From Minisyncoccota bacterium (lineage in GTDB: Bacteria > Patescibacteriota > Minisyncoccia > Phycocordibacterales > PALSA-1337), in NCBI GenBank assembly GCA_041671485.1, contig JBAZBL010000002.1, forward strand, positions 9,320 to 73,319: a stretch of 64,000 nt of DNA. The letters are read 5' to 3'. Made by a program: the position numbers and the translations under genes. Below are positions 1,705 to 43,765 of this stretch, piece by piece (positions within the stretch are counted from its first letter, which is position 1; each line of letters begins with the position of its first letter). Under the pieces are notes generated by a model that saw nothing but the letters and a program-made list of their open reading frames with translations, did no database searches and had not been told where the DNA came from.

Positions 1705-2940
1705 GTGCAGATAAACTATCCCAGAGAAAGACACGGACTACCACCGGAACATGAAGTGCGAGATATCATTTTGGTCTTATGCCACGAGTGTGGTTGGAAC
1801 CATGATAATGTCAGACTTCAATACATTGGTGGTGATCGACGCAAATATTTCCCCAAACAGGGAATCAAACTTATGCGTGGTTGCCAGTTTACTGTGCAAT
1901 TATATGTAGGTTGCGACAACGAAACGGTTGAGACTCACTTCCAGCTTATAAACGGAAACGGACGAGCGCGTCCGGGTCATGAGCTTTACCAAGAAATGAT
2001 CGGAATCTTCAGCGGCCGAATGATGATCGTCACCGACGAAATGATCCGTGAATTGCGCACTGGCATCAGTGGAAACGTTGTTCGCAGTCAACAACCTGAA
2101 CAACCGACGGTTGTCGTATCTGACGACACTGTATCTGATGGTAGTGTGGACCAAAATGAAATCGTTGACGATGCTTCGTCCACAACTCCAGCACCAAAGT
2201 CATCAGAGCCATCACCGGAGCCACAAGCTCCATTAGCTGATCCGGTACATTACAAAAAGTACTTTGATGATCCCTCCAAACTGCATTTAGGTGTCTGTGC
2301 TCTCGTCGCCATGTGCGACGAAGATACACAAAAACCGTTCAGTTTCGGAGACTTCGAAAAAGTCATCGCCGAATTGGATGTCCCCACGGGTAACATATCG
2401 CCGATGGTGTTCATCAGAGTCTTCACGACAAGAGGATTTGTAATTCGGCTCAACCCGGAAAGCAAACCTTCTCGTTATGCGATCACCGCAGCCGCAGTAG
2501 ACTTTGCGCTCGGTCCGATACCGAATTCTTTGATAAAAACCAAAATGCAAATCGAAGCGGAAGCTAACCGAAAACGAACACCTTCCGCCAAACCGAAAGC
2601 AGACATCCCAAAAACAGACATCAAGCAATCATTGCTTGAACTGAGAGCCAAGGCGGATGAACACAAAGTCCTCGAGGGTAAGTTGACTGCCGTTAAAAAT
2701 CGGTTGGCCAAATTGCAGGAAGTGGACATTACTGCCGAGGAAAAAAACGCCAAGGCAGAAATCACTTCGCACCAAAAGCGAATCGATGACCTCCGTGTGT
2801 TTCTCGATGACCTCGAGAAACGGAAAGGGGAAATACAAGCTACAGAAAAGGAAAGCGAGCACCTGAACAAGGCACTTAGTGATCCTCATCTTCTGCAAGC
2901 ACTCAGTCAACTCGAAGAATTCAAGAAACTGCTGTCCTAA
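1705..2940 (+). CDS. Hypothetical protein with an N-terminal Cys-rich region (CHECGW...C...C) and a C-terminal coiled coil
   Basis: 411-aa ORF with GTG start 6 nt after an AGGAG SD. The C-terminal about 120 aa are K/E/L-rich heptad-like. A rho-independent terminator follows. Higher GC than the genome background. Confidence 0.5.
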   Translation: MQINYPRERHGLPPEHEVRDIILVLCHECGWNHDNVRLQYIGGDRRKYFPKQGIKLMRGCQFTVQLYVGCDNETVETHFQLINGNGRARPGHELYQEMIGIFSGRMMIVTDEMIRELRTGISGNVVRSQQPEQPTVVVSDDTVSDGSVDQNEIVDDASSTTPAPKSSEPSPEPQAPLADPVHYKKYFDDPSKLHLGVCALVAMCDEDTQKPFSFGDFEKVIAELDVPTGNISPMVFIRVFTTRGFVIRLNPESKPSRYAITAAAVDFALGPIPNSLIKTKMQIEAEANRKRTPSAKPKADIPKTDIKQSLLELRAKADEHKVLEGKLTAVKNRLAKLQEVDITAEEKNAKAEITSHQKRIDDLRVFLDDLEKRKGEIQATEKESEHLNKALSDPHLLQALSQLEEFKKLLS

Positions 2941-2966
2941 GTCTTGAATTTGCTGAAAAGAATCAC

Positions 2967-2992
2967 AGGCGCACAAAAGTGCGCCTTTTTTA
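2967..2992 (+). terminator. Rho-independent terminator
   Basis: aggcgcac-aaaa-gtgcgcct stem-loop followed by TTTTTT. Confidence 0.6.
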
Positions 2993-3037
2993 TATTTTTT
3001 CAAAATAATTAAAGATTTTAAGCATAAAAAAGTAGTC

Positions 3038-3066
3038 TTGACATTAAATCAAATATATGTAATATA
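3038..3066 (+). promoter_or_regulatory. Candidate promoter (TTGACA, about 17-nt spacer, TGtAATATA extended -10)
   Basis: TTGACA at 3038-3043 and a TG-extended AT-rich -10 at about 3058-3066. It lies about 45 nt upstream of the ATG at 3114. Confidence 0.35.
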
Positions 3067-3113
3067 TATACAAGATCTTCCACACAACAACAATTGACCA
3101 TTGACAATATGAA

Positions 3114-3782
3114 ATGAAGACCGCAAAAACAATGAAAACTAAGGATTGCATGGCGGATTTCTTTAGGCGTTTCGGTAAATCCGAAGCCCTGATTGAGTTC
3201 GCGGAGGTACAATCCGACACTGAAAGAATGTGGCGCAAACACGGCATTATGCCGACAGGAGAAGTTCTTCTTCGGGTGTGTTATTTTCTGGATCTGATCG
3301 GATACAAAGTTGAAGAGCTTATGCGGGTCCACCCTGACATATTCACGGTTGGACAATGTATAGCTTTCAACCTGATGACTCCACGTATCGTGGAGAGAGC
3401 CATCGGTACGACCGACCGAAAAGCCCTATATCGATATTTTCGAGAAGGCATCGGAGTAACCAGAGAGCGTCTGAATGAATTCAAACTCATTGCAGATTCT
3501 CGTCGGTCTCAACTGACCGAAATGGTAAAACAGAAGCGTCTCGGTTTGAAACAGTTGCTCGGTAATTCACCAAGCCACAGTAACAAACCAGACGATTCAT
3601 TGATAGGCGAATTTGCTGCAGCTTGTTCGAGCGTAAGAACACTAGGAGGGAAACTCTTGGAGGGTCCTGTTGAAAATCGAATACGGATGCGGCAAAAAAT
3701 GGTTGAAGGGCCAGAACCGGCTCTTCATCTGACTTGGGAAACACTGAACAACCTGTTAAGCGAAAAGAAAGGAATCATATGA
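3114..3782 (+). CDS. Hypothetical protein (222 aa), middle gene of the three-gene cassette
   Basis: ORF with no recognisable motifs. Its stop TGA overlaps the downstream ATG (ATGA), indicating translational coupling. Confidence 0.45.
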   Translation: MKTAKTMKTKDCMADFFRRFGKSEALIEFAEVQSDTERMWRKHGIMPTGEVLLRVCYFLDLIGYKVEELMRVHPDIFTVGQCIAFNLMTPRIVERAIGTTDRKALYRYFREGIGVTRERLNEFKLIADSRRSQLTEMVKQKRLGLKQLLGNSPSHSNKPDDSLIGEFAAACSSVRTLGGKLLEGPVENRIRMRQKMVEGPEPALHLTWETLNNLLSEKKGII

Positions 3783-5416
3783 ATGCAATTAATGTTGCAC
3801 TACATCAGGGTAAAGTCATGTATAGGTTGGCGAAAAACTATGCCGATCTATCAGCAGTAATCAAGGAGGTCGTGCAGAATTCTGTCGACTCTTGTGCCAA
3901 ACGAATCGCTATTCAAATAAGTGTGCCACAGCGCACCTTTACTGTGTATGACAATGGTTCGGGGGCTAGCCGTGAGAAAATCACGCAAGCCCTTCAATCC
4001 ATTGGTAATACCCTTAAGGATGTTGGCAAGTATGGGCAGTTTGGACTCGGTCTGATCTCTCCTATTTCCATTGCCCGAGAATTCACCCTGACTTCGTGTC
4101 CGGCACCACGCCGAAGCGATTTCATGGAGTATCGATTCGTAACCGCGACCATCATCAAGCAAAAGCAGGTCTCAATTCCCAGTAGTCCTGTGAGTGGTCT
4201 CGAACACGATCCCAATGGAAAAACTTGGTGGCGCACGAAAGTTAATGTGGGCGGAATCACTAAAGACCGTCGCACCTCGCATCTAGACCCCGCTGAACTG
4301 ACAAGCGATATCGCACTCAAGTTTGGCGATGCCATCAGGGAAAGGCAAATTGACATTACCATCGACATTACCAATGACGATGGACACCAGTCAATCCTCA
4401 AGGTTGAGGCCCCCCAATTCTCCGGAAGAAAGATTGATGTCTTTAAGGAGGAAATGCCCGAGAGCGGCAAGGTAAAGGTTGAGCTCTACATTGCTCCTTT
4501 GGGACGTCGCGGTCGTCAAGGAAAAGTCGTCTTTGGCACAATGAACAACCCATCGCGCCTTTCACCGAAGCAATTCGTTGATTGCACCGTGACATTGCTC
4601 GATCAGCCGGTCGCTAAAGCACTCCTCTCTGGGGTTTTTGAGGGTCAAGTGCTCTGTGAGAAGGTTGCTCTACATGCTGACCGTACCAAATTCGAGGAGA
4701 ACGACGCACTCTTTGTGCTTTGTGAAGTTCTTGGGTTCTGGCATAAGAAGGTCGGTAAGAAAATCATTATTGAGGTGGAAGAACAGGCCTCCGACGATCG
4801 ATTCCAACGAATCGGTGTACAAGTGATGCCATATGCCGAGCTCCTGCTAAAACAGGTGGAGTTCGAATCAGTGGCGAGATTGATCACAGTCGGGTCTGTT
4901 GGTCCTGAACATGTCAAAGTTTCTCGAAAACAGATCATTGGTCAGGATGATGGCACTTCAGTATCAATTGGGGGTAAACCTTTTGAAGAAAAGGAAATAT
5001 GCAAAGGAGGATCTGGCAGTGGTGGTAAAACAATCCCAAAGATAGACCATCCACTTCATAAACCAGGACTCGTCTACGGCCCTCGCGGTCGCAAACGGAC
5101 TGATGTCAGAAGCAGTTCTACAGGTCTCCGGTTTGAACACGTCGAGATGGAAGACTTCAGGGTTCCTTTCGTCTTTGAACCACGGACCGGCATGTTGTCA
5201 TTCAACATCAACAATCCCAACTGGGGATTGTGCCAAGAAAATGACACTTTCCTGTCGGACTATCACATGGCGGTAATCAATACCGCCCTGTCTGCTGAAT
5301 TGTTCAGAGATACGGGTGGAATGATTCACCCCGAAGTGACCAAGTTTGCTCACGAGAATCTGTCTCATCAGGTCTTTGCTATCAGGAACGGCAAAGCCAT
5401 CCAAGTGAAGCACTAA
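3779..5416 (+). CDS. GHKL (Bergerat-fold, HATPase_c/MORC-MutL-Hsp90-like) ATPase with a large uncharacterised C-terminal region
   Basis: N-box E-VVQNSVDS, G1 box DNGSG, G2 box GQFGLGL within the first ~110 aa. A GAAAGGAA SD precedes the ATG at 3779. An alternative in-frame start at 3734 overlaps the upstream gene. Confidence 0.6.
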   Translation: MNAINVALHQGKVMYRLAKNYADLSAVIKEVVQNSVDSCAKRIAIQISVPQRTFTVYDNGSGASREKITQALQSIGNTLKDVGKYGQFGLGLISPISIAREFTLTSCPAPRRSDFMEYRFVTATIIKQKQVSIPSSPVSGLEHDPNGKTWWRTKVNVGGITKDRRTSHLDPAELTSDIALKFGDAIRERQIDITIDITNDDGHQSILKVEAPQFSGRKIDVFKEEMPESGKVKVELYIAPLGRRGRQGKVVFGTMNNPSRLSPKQFVDCTVTLLDQPVAKALLSGVFEGQVLCEKVALHADRTKFEENDALFVLCEVLGFWHKKVGKKIIIEVEEQASDDRFQRIGVQVMPYAELLLKQVEFESVARLITVGSVGPEHVKVSRKQIIGQDDGTSVSIGGKPFEEKEICKGGSGSGGKTIPKIDHPLHKPGLVYGPRGRKRTDVRSSSTGLRFEHVEMEDFRVPFVFEPRTGMLSFNINNPNWGLCQENDTFLSDYHMAVINTALSAELFRDTGGMIHPEVTKFAHENLSHQVFAIRNGKAIQVKH

Positions 5417-5611: not shown

Positions 5612-6259
5612 ATGATACAATTCTCGAACATGATTTATATTTTTCTTGATGAAAGTGGAGATTTGGGATTTGGTGAGCGTTCTACTCGCTGGTTTGTGAT
5701 TGCTACTATTATAACTACAAATTTCAGACCAATAGAGAAAGCTGTGACAAAGATATGGTGTTCGATGTCAAAAAAATATCAGAAACACGGAGAACTTCAC
5801 GCCAATTTTCATAATAGTTCAATACGAAGAAGATTTGTAAAAGCTATATCTAAAATAGAAAATTTAAATATAGCTTATGTGGTAGTAAATAAGCGAAATA
5901 CACCACATAACATAAAATATGAACATGAAAATCTGTATACATATGCGACCTATGTTTTATTGGAGAAGATTCAGTCACTTGGAATAATTACTCATGACAA
6001 TCAAGTGACACTTTGTGCGGATAAAAGATCCACAAATAAGATATTGAACAAGCATTTTACAGAATATATCACTAAATTGACAGAAAAGAATAGAGATGAG
6101 CCAATAAAGGTTGAGTTAATCAATTCGAGTAATAGCAAATCATTACAAGCAGTAGATTTTGTGTCATGGGCAATCTTTAGGAAATACGAAAGAAATGATC
6201 ACGAATTGTATGATTTGATAAGAGAACAGATCTGTAGTGAACAGATTTTATATCAATAA
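5612..6259 (+). CDS. DUF3800 family protein
   Basis: N-terminal IYIFLDESGDLGF motif typical of DUF3800. Very low GC compared with both flanks. Confidence 0.6.
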   Translation: MIQFSNMIYIFLDESGDLGFGERSTRWFVIATIITTNFRPIEKAVTKIWCSMSKKYQKHGELHANFHNSSIRRRFVKAISKIENLNIAYVVVNKRNTPHNIKYEHENLYTYATYVLLEKIQSLGIITHDNQVTLCADKRSTNKILNKHFTEYITKLTEKNRDEPIKVELINSSNSKSLQAVDFVSWAIFRKYERNDHELYDLIREQICSEQILYQ

Positions 6260-6363
6260 TAAATAAGAAAGCCCCTCCACTTTAACGAAGCACCAAGTGC
6301 ATCAACATGGAAGGGTCTTACTCCTTAATGAGAATAATAACAAACAAAAAAATAAATACAATA

Positions 6364-21459: not shown

Positions 21460-22710
21460 TTATTGTTTTGACCAGAATTTTGTCTCTATCTTTTTCATAT
21501 ATTTTGCCAATTCATCTAAGGAAACAGTCTCTTGGGAACGAGTATCTGTATCTCTTACAATTGCAGTGTGTTCTACGGCTTCTTTCTTGCCAATAACTAT
21601 AGTATATGGAGTATGATATCTTTCGATAGATGAAACTTGTGCTCCAAGACGGTCTTTTGCGAGTGATACATATAAAGGTACTTTTATTTGACGTAATCTC
21701 TCTATAATATCTAGGCATAAAAGTTTCGATTCGACACCGAGCTGAACAAATGAAGCTATTGGTCTTTTGATCTTTTTGACTATTTTTCTATTGTCAATAT
21801 TATTTGGTTTTACAACTATCGAAATACCTACACCAATAATATCTCTTTTCATACCTAGACGTTTCGCAAGACCACTATATCGCATACCTACTGCAAGTAT
21901 CTTTTGATCTTTTTTTGATTGGTTACGGTTGTTGTTTACAATAGAAAAGATTGTTTCGGTTGCATATTTACGATTTGCAATAAGAGAATTGTTGATAGTG
22001 TATGAAATATTTAGAGCTTCAAAGTATTCTAGAAGTTCTTCTAGATGTTGACGGCTATCCTCTGTCAAGAAATCAAGTGACTTTGGTGCCTGTTCATTTA
22101 GTGCTCTGCATGATTCATTGTTTGATGAGAGCAATTCGAAAGGATCTTTCTTGAATAATTGTCTACATTCTGGAGACATATTGTTTATATTTTTGCGATA
22201 GTATGCGGTGAGTTCTCGAGTAAATTTTGCAATTGAATCACGGTCTCCTGTACTATTTATCTCTACGACCGTATCTTTGTATCCTTCTTCGGAAAGTATA
22301 AGTCTAGCAACGTGGATAAGTGTTGCCTCGGCTATGCTACCAGAGGGACCCAATATTTCTAGATCTGCATAACGATGATATGCACTTTTTTTGCTTCCTC
22401 GAGAAGGATCTTTGAAATAGAGCATCACTGGTTGCAATAAAGTGTGCATATTTTGTTCATTGTATGTACGCAGTAATGCAGCTTTTTCTTCTACATGGAG
22501 TGGCAGTCGGCCGTGATATTCTGTTTCATCATCAATAGAATCATTTTCCAAAATGTCTTTTGTATAGTCCATATCAGTTTTTGTTATGGATACACTTTTT
22601 GTCGGTGTAAAACCATAATAAACAGCGATCTCTCCGATCTTGTCTAGGTTATCGCAAGCTATGAATTTTGTTTCTTTCTTTTTGTTCATAGATTTATTTG
22701 TCCTGGCCAT
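21460..22710 (-). CDS. hisS: Histidyl-tRNA synthetase-like class IIa aaRS
   Basis: Class IIa C-terminal anticodon-binding domain (YTIVIGKKEAVEHTAIVRD). VGMRYSGL resembles the HisRS GGRYDGL motif. Size 416 aa. Assignment to His is moderate. Confidence 0.55.
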   Translation of the reverse strand: MARTNKSMNKKKETKFIACDNLDKIGEIAVYYGFTPTKSVSITKTDMDYTKDILENDSIDDETEYHGRLPLHVEEKAALLRTYNEQNMHTLLQPVMLYFKDPSRGSKKSAYHRYADLEILGPSGSIAEATLIHVARLILSEEGYKDTVVEINSTGDRDSIAKFTRELTAYYRKNINNMSPECRQLFKKDPFELLSSNNESCRALNEQAPKSLDFLTEDSRQHLEELLEYFEALNISYTINNSLIANRKYATETIFSIVNNNRNQSKKDQKILAVGMRYSGLAKRLGMKRDIIGVGISIVVKPNNIDNRKIVKKIKRPIASFVQLGVESKLLCLDIIERLRQIKVPLYVSLAKDRLGAQVSSIERYHTPYTIVIGKKEAVEHTAIVRDTDTRSQETVSLDELAKYMKKIETKFWSKQ

Positions 22711-23309
22711 AAGGATATATTCGAAAATGGAAATAGTCGAAGTATTGGTCTACCTACAATGAGATTTTGGTCTAAGAGACCCCAAGCACGAGAATCGGAA
22801 CTTTGTATACGATTGTCTCCCATTACAAAATATTGTTCTGATCCGAGTTGTATAGTACTTGTGTCGTGTGATAATCGTGATTCGGAAATGAAAGATTCAT
22901 CTAGTACAAAACCATCTTTATTTTCTTCATTTATGATTGTGATTTTTCCATCCTGAATTTTTACAGTTTCATTGGGAAGGCCGATAATACGCTTGATATA
23001 ATATACTTTTTGATTGAAAGGATATTTAAAGACTATTACATCATCTCTTTGTGGTTCTTGAAATCTATATGATAGGCGATCTATTATGAGGAAATTTCCT
23101 GAATCAAATGTTGGGTCCATAGAAGCGCCATTTACGATGAATGGTTCGGCTATGAAGAATCTTATGGGTAGAGCAATCAAAAGAGCTATAATGATCGTTT
23201 TGGCCCATTCACGAGCAGAATTTCGCCAATTTAGGTCTTTTTTCTCTTCAATCTCTGGATTCATTTTACTATTGTAATACACTTTTCGGGTATTTGCAAA
23301 TTGATACAT
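22686..23309 (-). CDS. lepB: Signal peptidase I
   Basis: Box B GASMDPTF and VMGDNRIQSSDSR motifs. N-terminal TM helix. Confidence 0.8.
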   Translation of the reverse strand: MYQFANTRKVYYNSKMNPEIEEKKDLNWRNSAREWAKTIIIALLIALPIRFFIAEPFIVNGASMDPTFDSGNFLIIDRLSYRFQEPQRDDVIVFKYPFNQKVYYIKRIIGLPNETVKIQDGKITIINEENKDGFVLDESFISESRLSHDTSTIQLGSEQYFVMGDNRIQSSDSRAWGLLDQNLIVGRPILRLFPFSNISLWPGQINL

Positions 23310-23350
23310 ATTTCCATGAATGAGTTGATTTTATGTCAGTTTTCATTTAA

Positions 23351-23447
23351 TCTGGCTACAGAGTCGATTTAATCGGCAAAGCCAAAAGCACGGCTTAGTG
23401 TGCTCATTTGAACGTTGAAATAGACATATAAACTGGAGGATTTTCTC
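23351..23447 (+). promoter_or_regulatory. Conserved ~90-nt leader, copy 1 (upstream of pyrD)
   Basis: Shares agagtcgaYttaatcgRcaaag...tgaacRttgaaa with 25519-25598. Hairpin agcac/gtgct here; swapped arms in copy 2. Confidence 0.45.
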
Positions 23448-24347
23448 ATGATTACTCTCTCAAACGGCCATGCTTTCAAATACATGGTCGCTAGTGGTGC
23501 TCTAGCATTTGATGGCAAAGGCTGGTTTTGGGAACGACCACTGGTGTGGCTTGGTCTTATCAAGCCCGAACTTTTCACTGTCGTCATAAAATCTCTAACA
23601 CGTAACCCGCGTGCCGGAAATCTACGCTGGTGGAAACCATGGAATTGTGTTCGTCTGATTCCTGGTGGTTCGGTCAACAAAGTTGGTCTTACCAATCCTG
23701 GAATCGAATGGTGGTGCCGAGGAGTCGGTCCCAAACTCGATTTTAAGAAGTTCCCTACAGCCGGATCAATTTTCGGTGATGAAAAGGAACTGGTGGAAAT
23801 GGCGGAGATGCTCAATCGCTTCAGTCTCGTCGCGCTTGAAGTCAATGTCTCATGCCCGAATACCGGCCATGCAATCGAGCAGGCAGAGATGGTGGTAAAC
23901 AGCATGAAGGCGGTCAAACATGTTTCGTGTCATCCTGTCATCGTCAAAGTCTCGGCTGATCAAGACTATCTGATCATTGCACGCGAACTTGTTGGAGTCG
24001 CAGAAGCGGTCTCTCTCAACAGCGTGCCGTGGAAAACAGTCTTCACCAATGGCGAGCAAACGCCTTTGGCTAAGCTCGAGAAACAAGTCGGTGGTGGAGG
24101 CGGAGGCGTCTCTGGCAAACCAGCACAGAAACACAACTGGGCGGCAGTCGAGAGCTTATCCAAACAAGGATCGCTCCCCATGATCGGTCCAAGCGTCATG
24201 GAATTCGAAGACATGAAAAAGCTCAGGAGACTCGGCGCAAAAGCAATCAGCTTCGGTGCGATTCATCTTCCAACAAAAGGGAAACCATGGACCCTATTTA
24301 CAAATCCATGCAAGCCAACATTGTTCATCGAAAAGGAAAACATGTGA
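23448..24347 (+). CDS. pyrD: Dihydroorotate dehydrogenase (class 1-like)
   Basis: ASGAL.FDG.G N-terminus, NPGIE, EVNVSCPNT active-site region. About 300 aa. GC much higher than the genome. Confidence 0.7.
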   Translation: MITLSNGHAFKYMVASGALAFDGKGWFWERPLVWLGLIKPELFTVVIKSLTRNPRAGNLRWWKPWNCVRLIPGGSVNKVGLTNPGIEWWCRGVGPKLDFKKFPTAGSIFGDEKELVEMAEMLNRFSLVALEVNVSCPNTGHAIEQAEMVVNSMKAVKHVSCHPVIVKVSADQDYLIIARELVGVAEAVSLNSVPWKTVFTNGEQTPLAKLEKQVGGGGGGVSGKPAQKHNWAAVESLSKQGSLPMIGPSVMEFEDMKKLRRLGAKAISFGAIHLPTKGKPWTLFTNPCKPTLFIEKENM

Positions 24348-25426
24348 AAGAAAACTCTGTAACTATCCCTCGATGGTTTGACCGCCATCTCCATATTCGC
24401 GATGGCGACATGCTCAAAATCGTTCTTCCGTTCACGCTCAAACAGCGTGCGACAGGAGCTATCATCATGCCTAACCTTACTGATCCGATCTCGGATATCG
24501 AAAAGGCGAGGGCCTATCGCAATCGGATAGAACACTTCCTTAGAAGGATTCTACCGTTAGGTTGTGGCTTCATTCCGTGCATGACGCTGTATTTGACGGA
24601 TCACACTGATCCTGAAGAAGTTGTGCGCGGATTCGAAGAAGGTGTTTGGAGGGCGGTGAAGCTCTACATGGCCAATCAAAAAGGCCAAGGCGGAACTACC
24701 GGTTCTGCGCACGGCGTGAAGAATCTTTTCGGTCGCTATCCGGTGTTCAAGGCAATGGAGAAACACAAAATCCCGTTGCTCGGACACTTCGAAGCAGTCG
24801 AAGAAGATGTTGACGAATTCGATCGAGAGATCGTCTCCGTCGAGCGTGACCTCATGCCCATCCTCAAGTCCTTCCCAGGACTGCCGGTGGTCTTCGAGCA
24901 TATCACGGACGGACGCGCGGCCGACTTCGTCGCAGAAGTCGATCACGACATCCATGCGACCGTGACTGCCCATCATCTGATGATCAATCGCAATGCCATG
25001 TTCTGGGGCGGTATGAATCCTGGCCACTACTGCAAGCCTGTGCCGAAGCGCGAAACGCATCGTGCAAAGGTCCGGCAGTATGTGACTTCGGGTAATCGTC
25101 GCTTCGGGGCGGGAACTGATTCCGCTCCTCACGATGAAAGTGTTAAGTCTCGTTGCTATGGTTGCGCGGCTGGCATCTTCACTGCTCTATCGGCCGTCGA
25201 GCTCTACACGATGACCTTCGACGAAGACGATGCACTCGAACATCTCGGTCCATTCCTTTCCGAAAACTTCCTCGACATCTATGGTATGGAAGTGAGTTCG
25301 AATACGATGACGATCGAACGGCAAGGTTGGCATCTTCCGGAAAGTGTTTCGAGTCAGCTTATCGGCACACCGACCGTCAAAGTTTTCAAAGGAGGTGCAG
25401 ATCTTCCGTGGAAACTCGTTGGTTGA
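24308..25426 (+). CDS. pyrC: Dihydroorotase, E. coli PyrC-type (class II)
   Basis: Near-colinear similarity to E. coli PyrC (DRHLHIRDGDMLK, IIMPNL, LYLTD, VVFEHIT, GTDSAPH, CAAG). Confidence 0.85.
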   Translation: MQANIVHRKGKHVKENSVTIPRWFDRHLHIRDGDMLKIVLPFTLKQRATGAIIMPNLTDPISDIEKARAYRNRIEHFLRRILPLGCGFIPCMTLYLTDHTDPEEVVRGFEEGVWRAVKLYMANQKGQGGTTGSAHGVKNLFGRYPVFKAMEKHKIPLLGHFEAVEEDVDEFDREIVSVERDLMPILKSFPGLPVVFEHITDGRAADFVAEVDHDIHATVTAHHLMINRNAMFWGGMNPGHYCKPVPKRETHRAKVRQYVTSGNRRFGAGTDSAPHDESVKSRCYGCAAGIFTALSAVELYTMTFDEDDALEHLGPFLSENFLDIYGMEVSSNTMTIERQGWHLPESVSSQLIGTPTVKVFKGGADLPWKLVG

Positions 25427-25449
25427 AATCAAAAACAAGAACCTTAACC

Positions 25450-25485
25450 CAGCCCTGACATTAATTTGTCAGGGCTGATTTTTTG
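25450..25485 (+). terminator. Rho-independent terminator
   Basis: cagccctgaca-ttaatt-tgtcagggctg followed by TTTTTT. Confidence 0.6.
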
Positions 25486-25518
25486 TGTGCTTTACATTTT
25501 AATAAAATTATAGTAATG

Positions 25519-25598
25519 TTCCGCTTAGAGTCGACTTAATCGACAAAGGCTAAAGTGCTGCCTTAAAGCATACAACTGAACATTGAAAGGAAAATACC
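25519..25598 (+). promoter_or_regulatory. Conserved leader, copy 2 (upstream of putative pyrE)
   Basis: See 23351-23447. Confidence 0.45.
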
Positions 25599-26315
25599 AT
25601 GAAGCCAATCATTCCATTGCCAGGGGAAGATCTCCTGGAACTTGGGAAGCGTTGCAACGCAGTCTATGTCTGTCCGAAAGTCGGCTCTGAACGCAAGGGA
25701 CCTCTGGTCGCCTACGCAGGAAAGGATAAATACGGGAGGAATCTCGTCGGAGACATTTACTTCAACTTCCGGCGGATCGAGGTTCACCCAAAAGTGGTCG
25801 AGGCATTCGCCGAAGCCGCATGCCAGAAACTCCGCGATCAAGGTCTCATCGATGTGTTTGATACTGTCTGCGGAATTCCGCAAGGCGGTCGGACGTTCGG
25901 TCAGATGCTTGCGCTCGTCGCTGGTAAGCGGTTCGCATATGCGGACAAGAAGCCGAAACCGACGGAGGCGGGCAAGAAACAGGAATACACCTGGGACCTC
26001 TCGCAGTTCGATTTCGAGCAAGGCGAACGCGTTGCGGTTGCGGAAGATGTTTTTAACAACTTCCAGAATACCGACAATACTCTCGCAGAAATCGCCGTCA
26101 CTGGTGCGAACATCGTGCTTCTCGTCGGGGCGCTTAACCGCTCTCCGATCTACAGCACGTCCTACAAGGGTCTGCCGGTAATTGCTTCCATTCGTGAAGC
26201 GTATCCGGAATTCGAACAGGATGATCCTGCGGTTGCGAACGATATCGCTGCCGGCAAGCTCGAACTCGAAGTGAAAAAGAACTGGGCACGTCTCTGCGCA
26301 GCAATGCAACAGTAA
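25599..26315 (+). CDS. pyrE: Type I phosphoribosyltransferase, probable orotate phosphoribosyltransferase
   Basis: PRTase-fold motifs (VCGIPQGGRTFG; VAVAEDVFNNFQNT matching the PRPP-binding acidic patch). Sits between pyrC and pyrF. Product assignment rests on context. Confidence 0.45.
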   Translation: MKPIIPLPGEDLLELGKRCNAVYVCPKVGSERKGPLVAYAGKDKYGRNLVGDIYFNFRRIEVHPKVVEAFAEAACQKLRDQGLIDVFDTVCGIPQGGRTFGQMLALVAGKRFAYADKKPKPTEAGKKQEYTWDLSQFDFEQGERVAVAEDVFNNFQNTDNTLAEIAVTGANIVLLVGALNRSPIYSTSYKGLPVIASIREAYPEFEQDDPAVANDIAAGKLELEVKKNWARLCAAMQQ

Positions 26316-26345
26316 CTCTCAAACAAAACGAAAGGAAAACAGAAC

Positions 26346-27086
26346 ATGCAAAAGACACTGACACCGGAGGAACGATTGATCGTTGCCGCCGACTTCAAGC
26401 CAACGGCTCCCAACGGAAAGGACTGGGTGAAAGCCCGAGTTCTCGCACTGGCCGACAGCCTCAAAGGGACCGGAGTCTACCTCAAGGTGAACTCCGCCCT
26501 TCGAGCTTGCGGCTACAATCTGATCGGCGAAATCCAGTCGCGCGGTTTGCGGGTCTTCGCGGACCTCAAACTCTTCGACATCAGCGAGACTCTGTCCACA
26601 GACGGCGTCTTGCTGAAGGAAGCGAAACCGGAACTGCTCACCACTGTCTGCGTCGCGGGAGTTACCGCAATGCAGGCTTTGAAAGCCGAACTGCCCGACA
26701 CGGAAGTGCTCGGTGTGACGGTTCTTACGAGCCTCAAGGATGCCGATACGCAAGCGATGTTCACCTGCTCAACTGAGGAAGCCGTCATGCGGTTCGCCCA
26801 AGTCGCGGCAGATGCGAAGATCGATGGACTCATCTCGTCTCCCAAAGAGGCGGAAGTGCTCCGTGCGAAATTCGGCATCGTCTTGTCGCTCAACACACCG
26901 GCTATTCGGCCGACGTGGGCGATCGTTCCTGGCGATGATCAGAATCCCGAGCGGATCATGACTCCCGCAAAGGCCATCAAGGCCGGTGCGGATCGTATCG
27001 TGGTCGGACGTCCGATCGTGAAGGCCGAAAAGCCCTACGACGCGGTCATGCGGACCATCGAGGAAATCGCTTCGGCTATGGTGTAG
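26346..27086 (+). CDS. pyrF: Orotidine-5'-phosphate decarboxylase
   Basis: LIVAAD, DLKLFDI, and IVVGRPI motifs. Confidence 0.8.
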   Translation: MQKTLTPEERLIVAADFKPTAPNGKDWVKARVLALADSLKGTGVYLKVNSALRACGYNLIGEIQSRGLRVFADLKLFDISETLSTDGVLLKEAKPELLTTVCVAGVTAMQALKAELPDTEVLGVTVLTSLKDADTQAMFTCSTEEAVMRFAQVAADAKIDGLISSPKEAEVLRAKFGIVLSLNTPAIRPTWAIVPGDDQNPERIMTPAKAIKAGADRIVVGRPIVKAEKPYDAVMRTIEEIASAMV

Positions 27087-27104
27087 CCAAGTCCTCAGCA
27101 ACAA

Positions 27105-27138
27105 TTAGCTCGTTCACTCCGGTGGCGAGCTAATTTTT
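27105..27138 (+). terminator. Rho-independent terminator after pyrF
   Basis: ttagctcg...cgagctaa stem followed by TTTTT. A second hairpin (aaaacccca-agt-ggggtttt) lies at about 27175-27197. Confidence 0.55.
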
Positions 27139-27363
27139 CATAATTAACTTTTTTAGTGTTTATGATAAATAACAAAAACCCCAAGTGGGGTTTTTGTGCG
27201 TTTCTGTGACATCATATGATACACAGAGTGTTTGCCTGCCATCAACACGCTGTCGATAGAATCATCTTGGTCGCAACTCCAATGACTCGCAGGCTTAACT
27301 ACAAGATAGTATAGACAAAAAATCTTACTTGTCAAGTATTTGTTTTAGACTTATAATCGCATC

Positions 27364-27960
27364 ATGTCATATACAATAGTTGGTCTAGGCAATCCGGGTG
27401 CAGAGTATGAAAATACACGTCACAATACTGGTCGTATTGTTTTGAATGTGATTGCAGATGAATTCTCGAAAAAAGACTTTGAATCAGATAAGAAAATAAA
27501 TGCATTGATAGTAGAAGGGAAGATAGGCAAAGAAAAAGTAGTTTTTGTGGTACCCGATACATTCATGAATAATTCTGGCAAAGCAGTTGGAGTATTGATC
27601 AAAAGCAAAAAGGCAGCAGAAAGACTTGTCGTTATCTATGATGATTTCAATTTACCACTCGGAAGAATCAAAATCTCTTTCAATAGAAGTTCTGGTGGGC
27701 ACAATGGTATAGAATCTATAATCAAAGCAATAAAGACTGAAAGCTTTATCCGTATTCGTATTGGCACTGCTCCAGAGAATGCAAAAGGAGAAGCAAAAGT
27801 ACCACACGGTGATGAGAAAATAGAGAAATTCATTCTTGGATCATTCAAACCAGATGAATTGAAAACATTAAAAAAGGTTGCAAATAAATGTACTGAAGCC
27901 GTAGAGATGATAGTGAGAGAAGGAAGGCAAAAAGCCATGAGCGTTTTTAACGCTATTTAG
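27364..27960 (+). CDS. pth: Peptidyl-tRNA hydrolase
   Basis: N-terminal IVGLGNPGAEYENTRHNTG and GHNG motifs. Confidence 0.85.
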   Translation: MSYTIVGLGNPGAEYENTRHNTGRIVLNVIADEFSKKDFESDKKINALIVEGKIGKEKVVFVVPDTFMNNSGKAVGVLIKSKKAAERLVVIYDDFNLPLGRIKISFNRSSGGHNGIESIIKAIKTESFIRIRIGTAPENAKGEAKVPHGDEKIEKFILGSFKPDELKTLKKVANKCTEAVEMIVREGRQKAMSVFNAI

Positions 27961-27998
27961 TATTTTTTATACCCAAAATATCTGTCTCAAAAATAGAT

Positions 27999-29225
27999 TT
28001 ATTTTTTCTCCCCAGAAAAACTCAATGCCATTTTTTGTTCCTTTGGTTCGAATAGTGTTATCTTGAAATCATAAGTTTTACCCAATTCGAGAGTTTTCCT
28101 CAATTTTTCTTCAGAGCCAAATTCAGAAACATGAACCAAGCCTGCTACACCTTCTTCGATAGAAGCCAATGCACCATGCTTATTGAATTTGATAATAACT
28201 CCAGATATAGGCATATCCTTTTTGTATTTTTTACCTGCTTCTACCCATGGATTTGGCTTCAGTTGTTTTATCGATAGAGATATCTTGCCATCTTTGATCT
28301 CTATGATCTTGGCTTTGACTTTTTGTCCAACTTTTACAAAATTGCTTGGATTGTCTACGAGACCCCAGTCAATTTCTGATATATGTACCAAACCTTCCAT
28401 GCCTTCTTCTAGCTTTATGAATGCACCAAATTCTACGACACCTGTTATAGTACCCTCGACCTCATTGCCCACTTCGTATTTACTTGCTATTTCTTCTTTT
28501 TCTTTGAGTTCAGAACCCTTTTCAGAGAAAATAAGTTTGCCTTCCTTTGGGTCGGCGGTGATGATAGAAACCTGTAGTCTTGTACCAACGAGCTTCTTCA
28601 ATTCCTCGAGGATTTTGTCTTTGTCTCCGTCTGCTACTTTGGGATAATGTTCTGGTTTCAATTGTGATGCTGGAAGAAATCCAGTTATTCCTTGCCAATC
28701 GATAAGAAGTCCTCCTTTATTTGCTTCTTTTATCTGGAGATCGAGCATTTTCCTATCTTTGATTGCAGATTCTGCTTCATTCCATATGAGAGCTTGCCTT
28801 GCTTCCTTTAGAGACAGTTCGTAATAGCCTTCTTTATGTGCATTGTCTACTATCTTTGCTGCTACGATATCTCCAACATTGATCTTTTTTATAATATCGC
28901 GTGCAGTCAAAAACTCTTTACCATATATGATACCTGTACCAAATGGTGCAAGATCTATAAATACAGAAGACTTTTCTGTTGCTATCACTGGTCCCTCGAC
29001 CAAGTCACCAATCATCGGAGGGTTTTTGATCTGTGCAATAAGTTTACCCATTACGGTTGCCTTCTTTTCTTCGGCAATCCTCATTGCTTTGTCTTTTATC
29101 TTTTCCTTATCATCAGACTTTTTGTCAGAAACTTTTTTTGGAGCCTTTATCTCTATCTCTTTTTCTTTTGTCACTTTACTATCATCTTTCGAACCAGTCA
29201 GAGTTTCTCTTAATTTTTTGAACAT
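27999..29225 (-). CDS. rpsA: 30S ribosomal protein S1 (four S1 domains)
   Basis: Repeated S1 OB-fold motifs (G.V..I...GAFV.L..G..GL.H.SE). Confidence 0.75.
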   Translation of the reverse strand: MFKKLRETLTGSKDDSKVTKEKEIEIKAPKKVSDKKSDDKEKIKDKAMRIAEEKKATVMGKLIAQIKNPPMIGDLVEGPVIATEKSSVFIDLAPFGTGIIYGKEFLTARDIIKKINVGDIVAAKIVDNAHKEGYYELSLKEARQALIWNEAESAIKDRKMLDLQIKEANKGGLLIDWQGITGFLPASQLKPEHYPKVADGDKDKILEELKKLVGTRLQVSIITADPKEGKLIFSEKGSELKEKEEIASKYEVGNEVEGTITGVVEFGAFIKLEEGMEGLVHISEIDWGLVDNPSNFVKVGQKVKAKIIEIKDGKISLSIKQLKPNPWVEAGKKYKKDMPISGVIIKFNKHGALASIEEGVAGLVHVSEFGSEEKLRKTLELGKTYDFKITLFEPKEQKMALSFSGEKK

Positions 29226-41617: not shown

Positions 41618-43765
41618 CTACCTCATTCGGTAGAATGTGAACTCGAGGCTTGTTTCCTGAATGCCTACGAGTCGCAGTTTCCACTCATGTTGCTGGAGTG
41701 GATCTGCCGCAACTTTGACCTGACCGGAATGTTTGGTGGACAGCTTTCCGTCTATTACACATTCGATCTGATCACTGTTTGCTGGAGTGTAACAGGACAT
41801 GTTCCAGCCATCTGGAATAATGACCTGAAGCAACTCTCCAGCCTTGATCCATCTTGAATCGGTGAAGCTCTTGCAACAGTTATTAGCTGGCACACAGAGC
41901 CGTCCGTCGAGGATTTGTGTCGGAGGTAGTTCCCACCAATTGGGAACCTTAACCTCGACAGGCTTCTCCTGTGGCACTGATGCCGTCCGAGGAGAAGTCG
42001 CCGTGACGTCTGTTGGCTTTGCCGTCGTTGGACAGCAACCGCCTATAACGACATTGCTTTTGCCAACAGCATTGCCGTTGCCGATCACAATGTTGATGAC
42101 ATTATTGTCACCAACACCGTCACGAGTTACCCTTTGTAAGAGGGCGTTCGTCAGGTCGGACACGTTGGTCACGACTGGTGGCACAATTACCGACCGCTGA
42201 CCCAGTCCATCCACCGACTTTTGTAGTCCTTGGATGGCTGACAGGAACGGAGTCGTGTCAGTAACCGGCGGAGTTGTCGCTGTTGGCACTGTGGACTTTT
42301 TGAAGAGCACGGCCTGCCACACAAACCACACCGCTCCGATGATCATGAGGACGACCAGGAGTGGCAACCACTGCAAGTCGCGATCATACCAGGACCCCTT
42401 CTTTGCAGGAGGAGTTGGTGGCACCACGGGCGGAGGTGTCGGAGTGACCAACTTGCCACGAAGTTCATCAAGTTCCTTTCGGAGTTTGGTTACTTCATCA
42501 CTTGTTGTCACCACTGGTGCTGGCGGAGTCTGTGCCACTTTCGTGGCAGTTCCTACAGCCAACTCACGAATGAGATCGATCTGGCTCTGAAGCGCAGAGA
42601 TCTCATCTTTCGCAACTTTCAGTTCCTGTTGTGCCAGAGCCGAATGGTCATCGAATGATCCGGCCGGGAGTTTCTCCTCGGCGGGTTTCGATGGCTCTGC
42701 TGTTGCTGACCCAACCTTTTCCTCGGCAGGCTTCGGAGCCAGCGTCGGAGGAGGCGGGACCACTTTCGGTTCCTCGACCACGGGGGTCGGAGGTGGAGCC
42801 GGAGGAACGGCATGACCGACAGGTGGTGTTGTCACTGGTGCTGGTGTGTCAATGACCGCGGGGGTCGGAGCTGGTTTTTCCTTCGCCATTTCGGTGGCGA
42901 GGTTGGCGCAGGCGACACTGTGGTGTTGCTCCAGCTCGTCGATGATCTTTGTAAGCTCGTCCCATCCTCCTTGGAACTTGCTATACAGAGATTTGAGTTG
43001 GATGACTTGTCTCCTCATTTGGTTCAATGCGAGTCCCATGTTTCTCAACATGGAAGTGTCTGGAGTGATTTGTTTGGCCTCGACTCCCACAAGGTCGTTC
43101 TTGATCCTCTCCAATCGCCGGACCATCGTCACATACCCAGGCGGGACCCTCTCCTTCTTTTCTGACCCATCCGCTTTTGGCGTTGGGGGCAGAGTCGGAG
43201 GAGGAGTGATCACTTTTGGTTCCTCGGCCATGGTGGCCGTGGGAACTGGAGGAGTCACCACAGCAGGCGGTGTTGCCACTGCCGGTGTCTCGGTCGCAGG
43301 GGTCGGAGGAAGTGGAAGCTTAATCGCAAGTGCAGATAACTTTCCGTTTTCTTTGCACGAGAGCTTTTCCTTCCACGGTTCACTTCGATCGAGGTTAGGT
43401 GCCATGAGAGCACATACCTGAAGACCATAGAAGATCGTATCGTTTGGATGTCCGGGAGCCCAACTGAGACCCTCGTTGATATCCATGATGAGCCGATCAT
43501 TTGAAAGTATCGGTTCAAGCGTTCTCACGTTTGTTACGATACTTTCTTTGTCATAGTCAATCACGACGATGACAAATGAAGACTCACCAGTCTTCGGCAT
43601 GATCGTGAGCGTATTACCACTCAGTTCACATGTCGGGGCAAGAGCCCGTTTTGTTTTCTTAGCCATTTTCTGTTTTCTCCGTTTGTTGCGACCCCTTTTA
43701 TAGGGCCTTTGTTTTGCGAGAATCCATTGAAGGATCCTTGCGGTTTTTGTCTTTTTGATTGTCAA
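41618..43765 (-). CDS. Large Pro/Thr-rich repeat membrane protein with coiled-coil segments and a Cys-rich C-terminal domain
   Basis: 715-aa ORF (the start may be an internal Met at 43666). One TM helix (LPLLVVLMIIGAVWFVWQAVLF). Two copies of a ~150-aa repeat (EEPKV.TPPPTL...). About 55% GC in a ~35% GC genome. Confidence 0.5.
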   Translation of the reverse strand: MTIKKTKTARILQWILAKQRPYKRGRNKRRKQKMAKKTKRALAPTCELSGNTLTIMPKTGESSFVIVVIDYDKESIVTNVRTLEPILSNDRLIMDINEGLSWAPGHPNDTIFYGLQVCALMAPNLDRSEPWKEKLSCKENGKLSALAIKLPLPPTPATETPAVATPPAVVTPPVPTATMAEEPKVITPPPTLPPTPKADGSEKKERVPPGYVTMVRRLERIKNDLVGVEAKQITPDTSMLRNMGLALNQMRRQVIQLKSLYSKFQGGWDELTKIIDELEQHHSVACANLATEMAKEKPAPTPAVIDTPAPVTTPPVGHAVPPAPPPTPVVEEPKVVPPPPTLAPKPAEEKVGSATAEPSKPAEEKLPAGSFDDHSALAQQELKVAKDEISALQSQIDLIRELAVGTATKVAQTPPAPVVTTSDEVTKLRKELDELRGKLVTPTPPPVVPPTPPAKKGSWYDRDLQWLPLLVVLMIIGAVWFVWQAVLFKKSTVPTATTPPVTDTTPFLSAIQGLQKSVDGLGQRSVIVPPVVTNVSDLTNALLQRVTRDGVGDNNVINIVIGNGNAVGKSNVVIGGCCPTTAKPTDVTATSPRTASVPQEKPVEVKVPNWWELPPTQILDGRLCVPANNCCKSFTDSRWIKAGELLQVIIPDGWNMSCYTPANSDQIECVIDGKLSTKHSGQVKVAADPLQQHEWKLRLVGIQETSLEFTFYRMR

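Follow-up and report, generated by a model that had tools for sequence, protein, structure and literature searches.

A conserved hairpin-pseudoknot leader RNA, a candidate pyrimidine sensor, precedes both pyr transcription units of a Patescibacteria gene cassette

We analysed a 64,000-nucleotide (nt) stretch of the genome of a Minisyncoccota bacterium of the Patescibacteria (GenBank assembly GCA_041671485.1, contig JBAZBL010000002.1, positions 9,320 to 73,319; hereafter the window), which carries a pyrimidine biosynthesis (pyr) cassette arranged as two transcription units, pyrD-pyrC and pyrE-like/pyrF. A short leader precedes each unit. Comparison of these leaders with their relatives in other genomes indicates, with high confidence, that they are paralogous copies of a conserved, structured and apparently undescribed 5'-leader RNA family of Patescibacteria, a new cis-acting RNA that appears to consist of a 5' hairpin (P1) followed by an H-type pseudoknot with stems S1 and S2. 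We propose, at a probability of roughly 0.45, that this leader is a riboswitch-type sensor of a pyrimidine-pathway metabolite which would act after transcription initiation.

Only two sites in the window match the 22-mer AGAGTCGAYTTAATCGRCAAAG, one at 23360-23381 and the other at 25527-25548, each on the forward strand, and 100 dinucleotide shuffles produced no match even with three mismatches allowed, bearing out the duplicated conserved leader that the original prediction had placed before pyrD and pyrE. Besides this 22-nt box, the two leaders have in common a TGAACNTTGAAA box and a 5-bp helix whose arms are swapped between the copies. The TGAACRTTGAAA box lies at 23409-23420 and 25577-25588; taken alone at one mismatch it is not above chance in the window (3 found versus 3.5 expected), and what makes it significant is where it lies and that homologues conserve it. 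The exchanged-arm helix, with its structure-preserving changes, had also been proposed and proves to be real, four of its five pairs differing on both sides between the copies. What had been taken for a simple hairpin, however, is stem S2 of an H-type pseudoknot whose other stem, S1 (AAGSC/GSCUU), had been overlooked. S1 is likewise compensatory between the copies, with AAGCC/GGCUU in the pyrD copy versus AAGGC/GCCUU in the pyrE copy. Both copies have the element order S1 5' arm, loop L1, S2 5' arm, S1 3' arm, loop L3 and S2 3' arm, and the S2 5' arm abuts the S1 3' arm (with zero nucleotides between them in the pyrD copy), which is the topology of an H-type pseudoknot. The quasi-palindrome reported in the first box is present too, but it forms the RNA hairpin P1 rather than a DNA operator; P1 reads GUCGA/UCGGC in the pyrD copy versus GUCGA/UCGAC in the pyrE copy, an A-to-G change that converts a U-A pair into U.G. 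When a covariance model built from homologues was run over the window with filters off, only the two copies were recovered (85 and 67 bits), the next best match scoring 17 bits.

The same fold was traced through the homologous leaders. The covariance model was built from 26 leaders and described P1 and S2 only, S1 being left out. In a structure-blind MAFFT alignment, 87.1% of cells were paired versus 22-40% with slid partners and 12 of 14 pairs had changed on both sides, while the model-fitted alignment gave 89.8% versus 24-43% in the slid controls and two-sided changes at 13 of 14 pairs. None of 500 shuffles reached the observed pairing values in either alignment. S1 was paired in 86-88% of cells with three of its four pairs compensated, although it is absent from the model, and S2 was paired in 95% with all five pairs compensated. 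The unpaired cells mostly reflect a 1-nt register difference between pyrD-type and pyrE-type leaders, together with a few mis-aligned P1 stems. A curated parse, made by hand with registers of our own choosing and therefore descriptive only, gave 265 standard pairs out of 266 in the pseudoknot, with 15 distinct S1 helices and 18 distinct S2 helices, and 141 out of 141 in P1 (7 of them G.U), with 13 distinct helices. G.U accounts for about 9% of the paired cells in the model-fitted alignment. Since wobble pairs, which the other strand would read as A.C mismatches and which would break a DNA palindrome, are frequent, the structure is one of sense-strand RNA and not of duplex DNA.

The general anatomy of the family comprises a P1 of 5 bp, a junction of 0-2 nt, an S1 of 4-5 bp, an A-rich L1 typically of 3-4 nt, an S2 of about 5 bp with its 5' arm abutting the S1 3' arm, and an L3 that is usually YAA. 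The spacer between these two arms is 0 nt in 28 of 29 leaders; L1 spans the 5-bp S2 with 2-5 nt and L3 spans the 4-5-bp S1 with 2-6 nt. The S2 5' arm lies in the loop of S1 and both helices are compensated, which is what defines an H-type pseudoknot. The mean stabilities of the individual pseudoknot stems are only -3.6 and -5.1 kcal/mol, and such weak stems are what one would expect if a ligand or protein has to lock the fold. Thermodynamics alone is uninformative here: single-sequence folding z-scores are only -0.6 to -1.4, and RNAalifold recovers S2 only because a pseudoknot is beyond its model.

Our search for relatives covered one genome per species with the pyrE-like protein as query and yielded 46 loci, to which we added further contigs found through PyrD homologues (L168, L169-172 and L173/174) and two more pyrE-like contexts. 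A related leader was found before pyrE-like/pyrF in about 23-27 of the 46 species-representative loci, and before pyrD-pyrC in L004, L024, L168, L169-172 and L173/174, with covariance-model scores of 40-91 bits. Every model match within the loci (~460 kb) falls just ahead of a pyrE-like or pyrD-like gene and on the same strand as that gene. Unrelated metagenome DNA (570 kb), scanned as a negative control, yielded nothing significant (best match 20 bits, E 0.23). In the DNA examined, the structured leader is therefore a 5' untranslated region (UTR) element of one pathway, standing only before pyrE-like/pyrF and pyrD/pyrC in many lineages, and it has been found so far in Patescibacteria only. 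The proposed tie between the motif and both pyr units thus extends to many Patescibacteria, and further copies, whose absence would have counted against the original prediction, amount to at least 30 related leaders in which all three helices covary. The expectation that relatives would turn up in high-GC donor genomes did not hold; they sit in other low-GC Patescibacteria instead. Most genomes have pyrE-like/pyrF only, which takes orotate to uridine monophosphate (UMP), and a minority also have pyrD-pyrC.

Each copy is apparently served by its own sigma-70-type promoter, with a predicted transcript start at or next to the AGAG (Table 1). Nearly all of the 33 aligned leaders share a promoter geometry of -35 element, 17 nt, -10 TAnnGT, 6-7 nt and AGAG, and 30 of them combine the 17-nt spacer with a plausible -35 (TTGAYT or TTTACW). 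Given this conserved geometry, the transcript most likely starts at the AGAG, which leaves P1 about 3 nt from the 5' end and predicts a leader of ~72 nt for the pyrE copy and ~88 nt for the pyrD copy. No intrinsic terminator was found between the motif and the start codon in either copy. Outside the pseudoknot, the box UUGAAC-NUU-GAAA beside the Shine-Dalgarno sequence (SD) is the most invariant primary sequence of the leader. Leaders of the pyrD class have a CA-rich spacer in common ahead of the SD (AAAUAAACCAACAAAC in homologues). This extra stretch between box and SD (GAAAUAAACCAACAAAC), seen in the window at 23420-23434 and in the pyrD leaders of L004, L019, L024, L168, L169 and L173, is missing from pyrE-type leaders; it is unstructured and G-poor and could serve as a translation enhancer or a Rho-loading stretch.

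Table 1. Features of the two leaders and of the pyr cassette, in window coordinates.
Feature	Position	Strand	Details
Promoter, pyrD-pyrC unit (predicted)	23325-23353	+	-35 TTGATT 23325-23330; 17-nt spacer; -10 TAATCT 23348-23353; AGAG 6 nt on
pyrD copy, 5' AGAG and hairpin P1	23360-23377	+	AGAG 23360-23363; GUCGA 23363-23367 with UCGGC 23373-23377; loop UUUAA
pyrD copy, H-type pseudoknot	23379-23404	+	S1 AAGCC 23379-23383 with GGCUU 23392-23396; L1 AAA; S2 AGCAC 23387-23391 with GUGCU 23400-23404; L3 AGU
pyrD copy, conserved single-stranded box UUUGAACGUUGAAA	23407-23420	+	Holds 3 of 4 invariant MAFFT columns
pyrD SD and start codon	23435-23450	+	SD GGAGGA 23435-23440; ATG 23448-23450
pyr cassette	23448-27086	+	pyrD-like, pyrC, pyrE-like phosphoribosyltransferase, pyrF
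pyrD-like	23448-24347	+	Divergent class-1 dihydroorotate dehydrogenase
pyrC	24287/24344-25426	+	Homodimeric-type dihydroorotase; passes TIGR00856
Strong intrinsic terminator after pyrC (predicted)	25450-25477/25487	+	11-bp stem, then T-run; splits the two transcription units
Promoter, pyrE-like/pyrF unit (predicted)	25491-25519	+	-35 TTTACA 25491-25496; 17-nt spacer; -10 TAATGT 25514-25519; AGAG 7 nt on
pyrE copy, 5' AGAG and hairpin P1	25527-25544	+	AGAG 25527-25530; GUCGA 25530-25534 with UCGAC 25540-25544; loop CUUAA
pyrE copy, H-type pseudoknot	25546-25571	+	S1 AAGGC 25546-25550 with GCCUU 25560-25564; L1 UAAA; S2 GUGCU 25555-25559 with AGCAU 25567-25571; L3 AA
pyrE copy, box, SD and start codon	25576-25601	+	Box CUGAACAUUGAAA 25576-25588, running into SD AGGA 25588-25591; ATG 25599-25601
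pyrE-like	25599-26315	+	Divergent phosphoribosyltransferase; no Pfam match; weak similarity to orotate phosphoribosyltransferases
pyrF	26346-27086	+	Orotidine monophosphate (OMP) decarboxylase

Scans of the window with Rfam 15, both at the gathering threshold and permissively (E<=10), returned nothing at the motif; a weak greA-leader match in the permissive scan aligned only to the terminator-like hairpin after pyrC. The gathering-threshold scan of 15 motif-bearing loci returned tRNAs only. As had been suspected, the leader is thus unlike the PyrR binding loop, whose family was matched neither in the window nor in those loci. Full-text literature on structured RNAs of Patescibacteria (the Candidate Phyla Radiation), on riboswitches and on a pyrE/pyrF/pyrD motif held no description of it, within an incomplete coverage. 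To our knowledge, bacterial pyrimidine biosynthesis is controlled by proteins (PyrR, allostery of aspartate transcarbamoylase) or by transcription mechanisms sensitive to nucleoside triphosphates; a validated riboswitch for a pyrimidine nucleotide precursor is not known to us, nor did our literature searches turn one up.

The closest formal parallels are the small pseudoknot riboswitches, namely the preQ1-I (RF00522), SAM-II, guanidine-III and fluoride aptamers, which are also compact pseudoknots of ~25-30 nt placed in a 5' UTR near the ribosome-binding site of a biosynthetic operon. They share with the pyr leader the A-rich groove-crossing loops, the marginally stable stems and the lack of a terminator, pointing to translation or mRNA fate as the level of control. 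However, the pyr leader has no covariance-model match (cmscan) to preQ1-I or the other pseudoknot riboswitches of Rfam. It differs from them in its added 5' hairpin P1 and downstream single-stranded box, in an SD that lies outside the pseudoknot and 17-31 nt further on, and in its less invariant loops, and whereas they serve queuosine, S-adenosylmethionine, guanidine and fluoride, it sits in a context of pyrimidine synthesis.

Other comparisons come from pyrimidine genes themselves and from ribosomal protein operons. The PyrR attenuator of Bacillota (RF00515) is similarly a leader RNA repeated before successive pyr units for coordinated control, and its regulator is a protein of the phosphoribosyltransferase (PRTase) fold, as the pyr cassette encodes a divergent PRTase. 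Yet the pyr leader matches no PyrR model and lacks a terminator/antiterminator pair before the start codon; it is a pseudoknot rather than a binding-loop hairpin, and the fold of the cassette PRTase is nearest to orotate phosphoribosyltransferases. Enterobacterial pyrC and pyrD leaders exert translational control through a 5' hairpin near the start, and P1 likewise lies ~3 nt from the inferred start. There, start-site switching includes or excludes an SD-sequestering hairpin, whereas P1 does not touch the SD and is followed by a covarying pseudoknot, with no sign of alternative start sites, and the pyr leader has no Rfam match to the enterobacterial leaders. Ribosomal-protein operators such as E. 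coli rpsO/S15 also have a pseudoknot in the 5' UTR, one that is recognised by its shape and bound by a protein and that traps or excludes the ribosome; pseudoknots of that type include the SD or start codon, whereas the pyr pseudoknot lies upstream of them and its genes encode metabolic enzymes.

Variant leaders bear on both the fold and the function. In two related genomes (L003 3929-4003 and L005 16-90) P1 and the box are kept, and the pseudoknot is swapped for one nested hairpin, AGCU-CACG ... CGUG-U-GGCU, so that both helices are re-wired as one continuous hairpin of 8-9 bp. With 112 member sequences in the protein cluster that L005 belongs to, this form is not rare. The re-wiring argues that S1 and S2 would stack simultaneously in the normal form instead of alternating. 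Elsewhere, P1 and the pseudoknot are cleanly gone and the promoter, AGAG, UUGAAC box and SD are retained (L016 ~3950-4003; L019 122-190, pyrD; L167 ~3940-4003, pyrD; L173 ~6240-6324, pyrEF). In L023 (3941-4003) the pseudoknot alone is lost and a duplicated AAUUUUGAAC stands in its place. The deletion variants are likely constitutive derivatives. Their existence in nature implies that the module would be dispensable for expression, which suggests that it adds a negative control.

On our preferred reading, a cis-acting sensor would place both halves of the late pathway, pyrD-pyrC and pyrE-like/pyrF, under a single control exerted after initiation. A pyrimidine-pathway metabolite would stabilise the marginally stable pseudoknot aptamer, and, once bound, would reduce expression by acting on translation initiation or on mRNA fate, the output expected where no terminator is present; Rho-dependent effects on the CA-rich spacer may also contribute. 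Given a dispensable module, and the same module and box on both operons, the simplest logic would be negative control in the same direction by UMP or uridine triphosphate (UTP). Such an end product fits better than orotate, which one operon makes and the other consumes. We infer, from sequence comparison, that there is regulation at all, as well as its OFF polarity, its class of ligand and the role of the UUGAAC box.

Several observations weigh against a metabolite sensor. No expression platform coupled to the pseudoknot, whether terminator or anti-SD helix, was found. Thermodynamic folds leave most of the SD region unpaired and show no conserved helix that would sequester it, and a mutual-information scan gave signals for S1, S2 and P1 only, with no partner for the box, so that nothing found here connects the pseudoknot mechanistically to expression. 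The distance from pseudoknot to ATG, ~27 nt in the pyrE class versus ~43 nt in the pyrD class, is too variable for simple steric control. Validated small aptamers usually have invariant pocket nucleotides, whereas L1 of the pyr leader varies (AAAA, UACC, UAUA, CGAA) and its loop nucleotides are only moderately conserved. The hairpin variant of L003 and L005 even lacks the loops that would make a pocket. Finally, the exclusive association with pyr genes may mean no more than that the leader is inherited along with a mobile cassette; the sole unbiased search for other contexts, with the metagenome pattern GCCTTAAAGCGT-N(2-14)-GAAC, gave no real case among the 80 loci listed.

Other ways in which the elements of the leader might interact were considered and rejected. 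Kissing of the P1 loop (UUCAA-like) with the UUGAA box was not above chance, the mean best pairing being 3.93 versus 3.49 for shuffled loops. The S1 3' arm (GCCUU) as an anti-SD showed on inspection no covariation with the SD in those leaders where the arm differs (L010, L028, L035 and L037). The region upstream of the AGAG, a candidate partner of GAAC, is the promoter -10 and discriminator and is probably untranscribed. Inspection of the aligned leaders revealed no conserved small open reading frame (ORF) that might encode a leader peptide.

If the weak stems are locked by a protein rather than a metabolite, then P1 with the coaxial pseudoknot helix, the UUGAAC box, or both, would form the operator of a trans-acting protein that reports pyrimidine status. 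The protein might be PyrR-like or autogenous (for example the PRTase-like PyrE) and, when bound, would block ribosome loading or alter mRNA decay. We consider this unlikely, though it accounts well for helices that keep their shape while their sequence varies and whose loops have few invariant nucleotides, for a single-stranded box as the most invariant element, and for the L003/L005 variant, which retains a helix without the pseudoknot loops. PyrR itself is a PRTase-fold protein, and the pyrE-like gene encodes a divergent PRTase that is unusually conserved, at 80-93% identity across lineages. In the loci examined we found no conserved regulator gene beside the cassette, so a protein partner would have to be cassette-encoded or a housekeeping protein. 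However, the leader has no similarity to the PyrR binding-loop family, and no RNA-binding domain was detected in any cassette protein. The AlphaFold model of the PRTase (mean predicted local distance difference test, pLDDT, of 69; medium confidence) is structurally closest to solved orotate phosphoribosyltransferases, and the fold search returned orotate and adenine phosphoribosyltransferases with no PyrR in the top 50, so a PyrR-like nature of this protein was rejected. Further, the pyrD of L173 retains the motif even though pyrE-pyrF in that locus is of a different, fused type.

An improbable alternative is that the leader senses nothing and is a constitutive element, its 5' hairpin and pseudoknot either shielding the mRNA from 5'-dependent decay of the RppH/RNase J type or acting as a standby site or translation enhancer. 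It would then be found at pyr genes only because the cassette moves between Patescibacteria, and would have been duplicated together with the promoter. The position of P1, ~3 nt from the inferred 5' end, suits such a role, as do an SD that is predicted to be open regardless and the existence of lineages without the module or with a plain hairpin. The cassette also looks mobile, with its GC excess, its proteins of 80-95% identity and its differing insertion point in a syntenic genome. A mere stabiliser, however, would need no pseudoknot with tight loop limits kept through 15-18 independent helix sequences; the stems are weak and not of stabiliser grade, and the module accompanies both transcription units of a single pathway but none of the neighbouring genes.

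The original prediction had left room for either a cis-regulatory RNA or an operator, and of these the RNA is strongly supported by three covarying helices and by wobble pairs. The DNA reading, in which the TCGA-N5-TCGR quasi-palindrome and/or the TTGAAC box binds a transcription factor as a roadblock just past the promoter, can draw on P1 arms that are palindromic as DNA in many copies, a box that is an inverted repeat (TTGAA-NN-TTCAA) in a few loci (L010, L032) and a position (+3 to +65) that suits a roadblock repressor, but it is effectively excluded: the P1 sequence changes wholly while complementarity stays (GCUGA/UCAGC, GUCAG/CUGAC, GCAUC/GAUGC, UUGUUG/CAACAA), the opposite of a protein-DNA half-site, whose sequence would be kept along with duplex symmetry, G.U pairs break the DNA palindrome in P1 and the pseudoknot, the pseudoknot pattern is meaningless in duplex DNA, and most copies have the box as a direct repeat.

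The proteins of the cassette are themselves distinctive of the group. The pyrE-like PRTase and the PyrD-like protein belong to large, highly conserved subfamilies specific to Patescibacteria (313 and 1169 database proteins, respectively). Close homologues of the pyrE-like protein number in the hundreds, with 79-92% identity among the 120 best listed, and are nearly all from Patescibacteria; no relative was found in viral contigs. The PyrD-like protein falls well short of the NCBIfam cut-offs in score and is 100% identical to one from a 'Candidatus Paceibacterota' metagenome-assembled genome. Taken at its longest, the pyrC ORF shares 61 nt with pyrD. The family alignment begins only at residue 25, and the overlap in homologous loci is 4 nt, so the pyrC start is probably the GTG at 24344, within a GTGA shared with the pyrD stop, which implies translational coupling.

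The GC content of the cassette is 52% versus 39% for the genome. Across loci the cassette exceeds its flanks by 5-21 points, and the pyrE-pyrF regions of 14 other loci (L001-L038) have 45-60% versus 36-50%. Cassette proteins are 80-95% identical across different Patescibacteria lineages and the leaders are AT-rich like their hosts. The cassette looks as if it were spreading horizontally within Patescibacteria; no high-GC donor was identified. L168 (1006-8870) has the same neighbourhood as the window (21460-29225), with HisRS, signal peptidase, Pth and an S1 protein, and the pyrDCEF block stands after pth in L168 and before pth in the window, reflecting either independent insertion or local rearrangement. 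The fused PRTase-PyrF of L173 has 437 amino acids. In the Taylorbacteria contigs L169-L172, pyrD-pyrC with its motif is preceded at a distance of ~2.5 kb by a Trp-repressor-family gene (PF01371; 1166-1477), which other loci do not conserve and which is probably unrelated to the motif. Two more GC-rich patches in the window may be further acquired genes: 41618-43765 on the reverse strand (56% GC at 42-43 kb), with a 715-residue ORF without a Pfam domain, and 1705-5416 (43-49% at 2-5 kb), where the single ORF match is a GHKL-type ATPase domain.

At ~70 nt, the pyr leader is a candidate small enough to synthesise and test as a pyrimidine-responsive riboswitch, and it comes from a group, the Patescibacteria, in which gene regulation and nucleotide acquisition are largely unknown and for which a recent perspective calls for riboswitch-like tools (PMC11665869). 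We suggest, more tentatively than for a sensor as such, that it could be the first riboswitch class for pyrimidine biosynthesis: a minimal hairpin and H-type pseudoknot sensing UMP/UTP or orotate, confined to Patescibacteria and duplicated on a mobile GC-rich cassette. In any case, the leader marks a pyr cassette that is apparently spreading among Patescibacteria. If the sensor reading is true, the salvaged or late-pathway route to UMP in these ultrasmall episymbionts would be tuned to the supply from the host.

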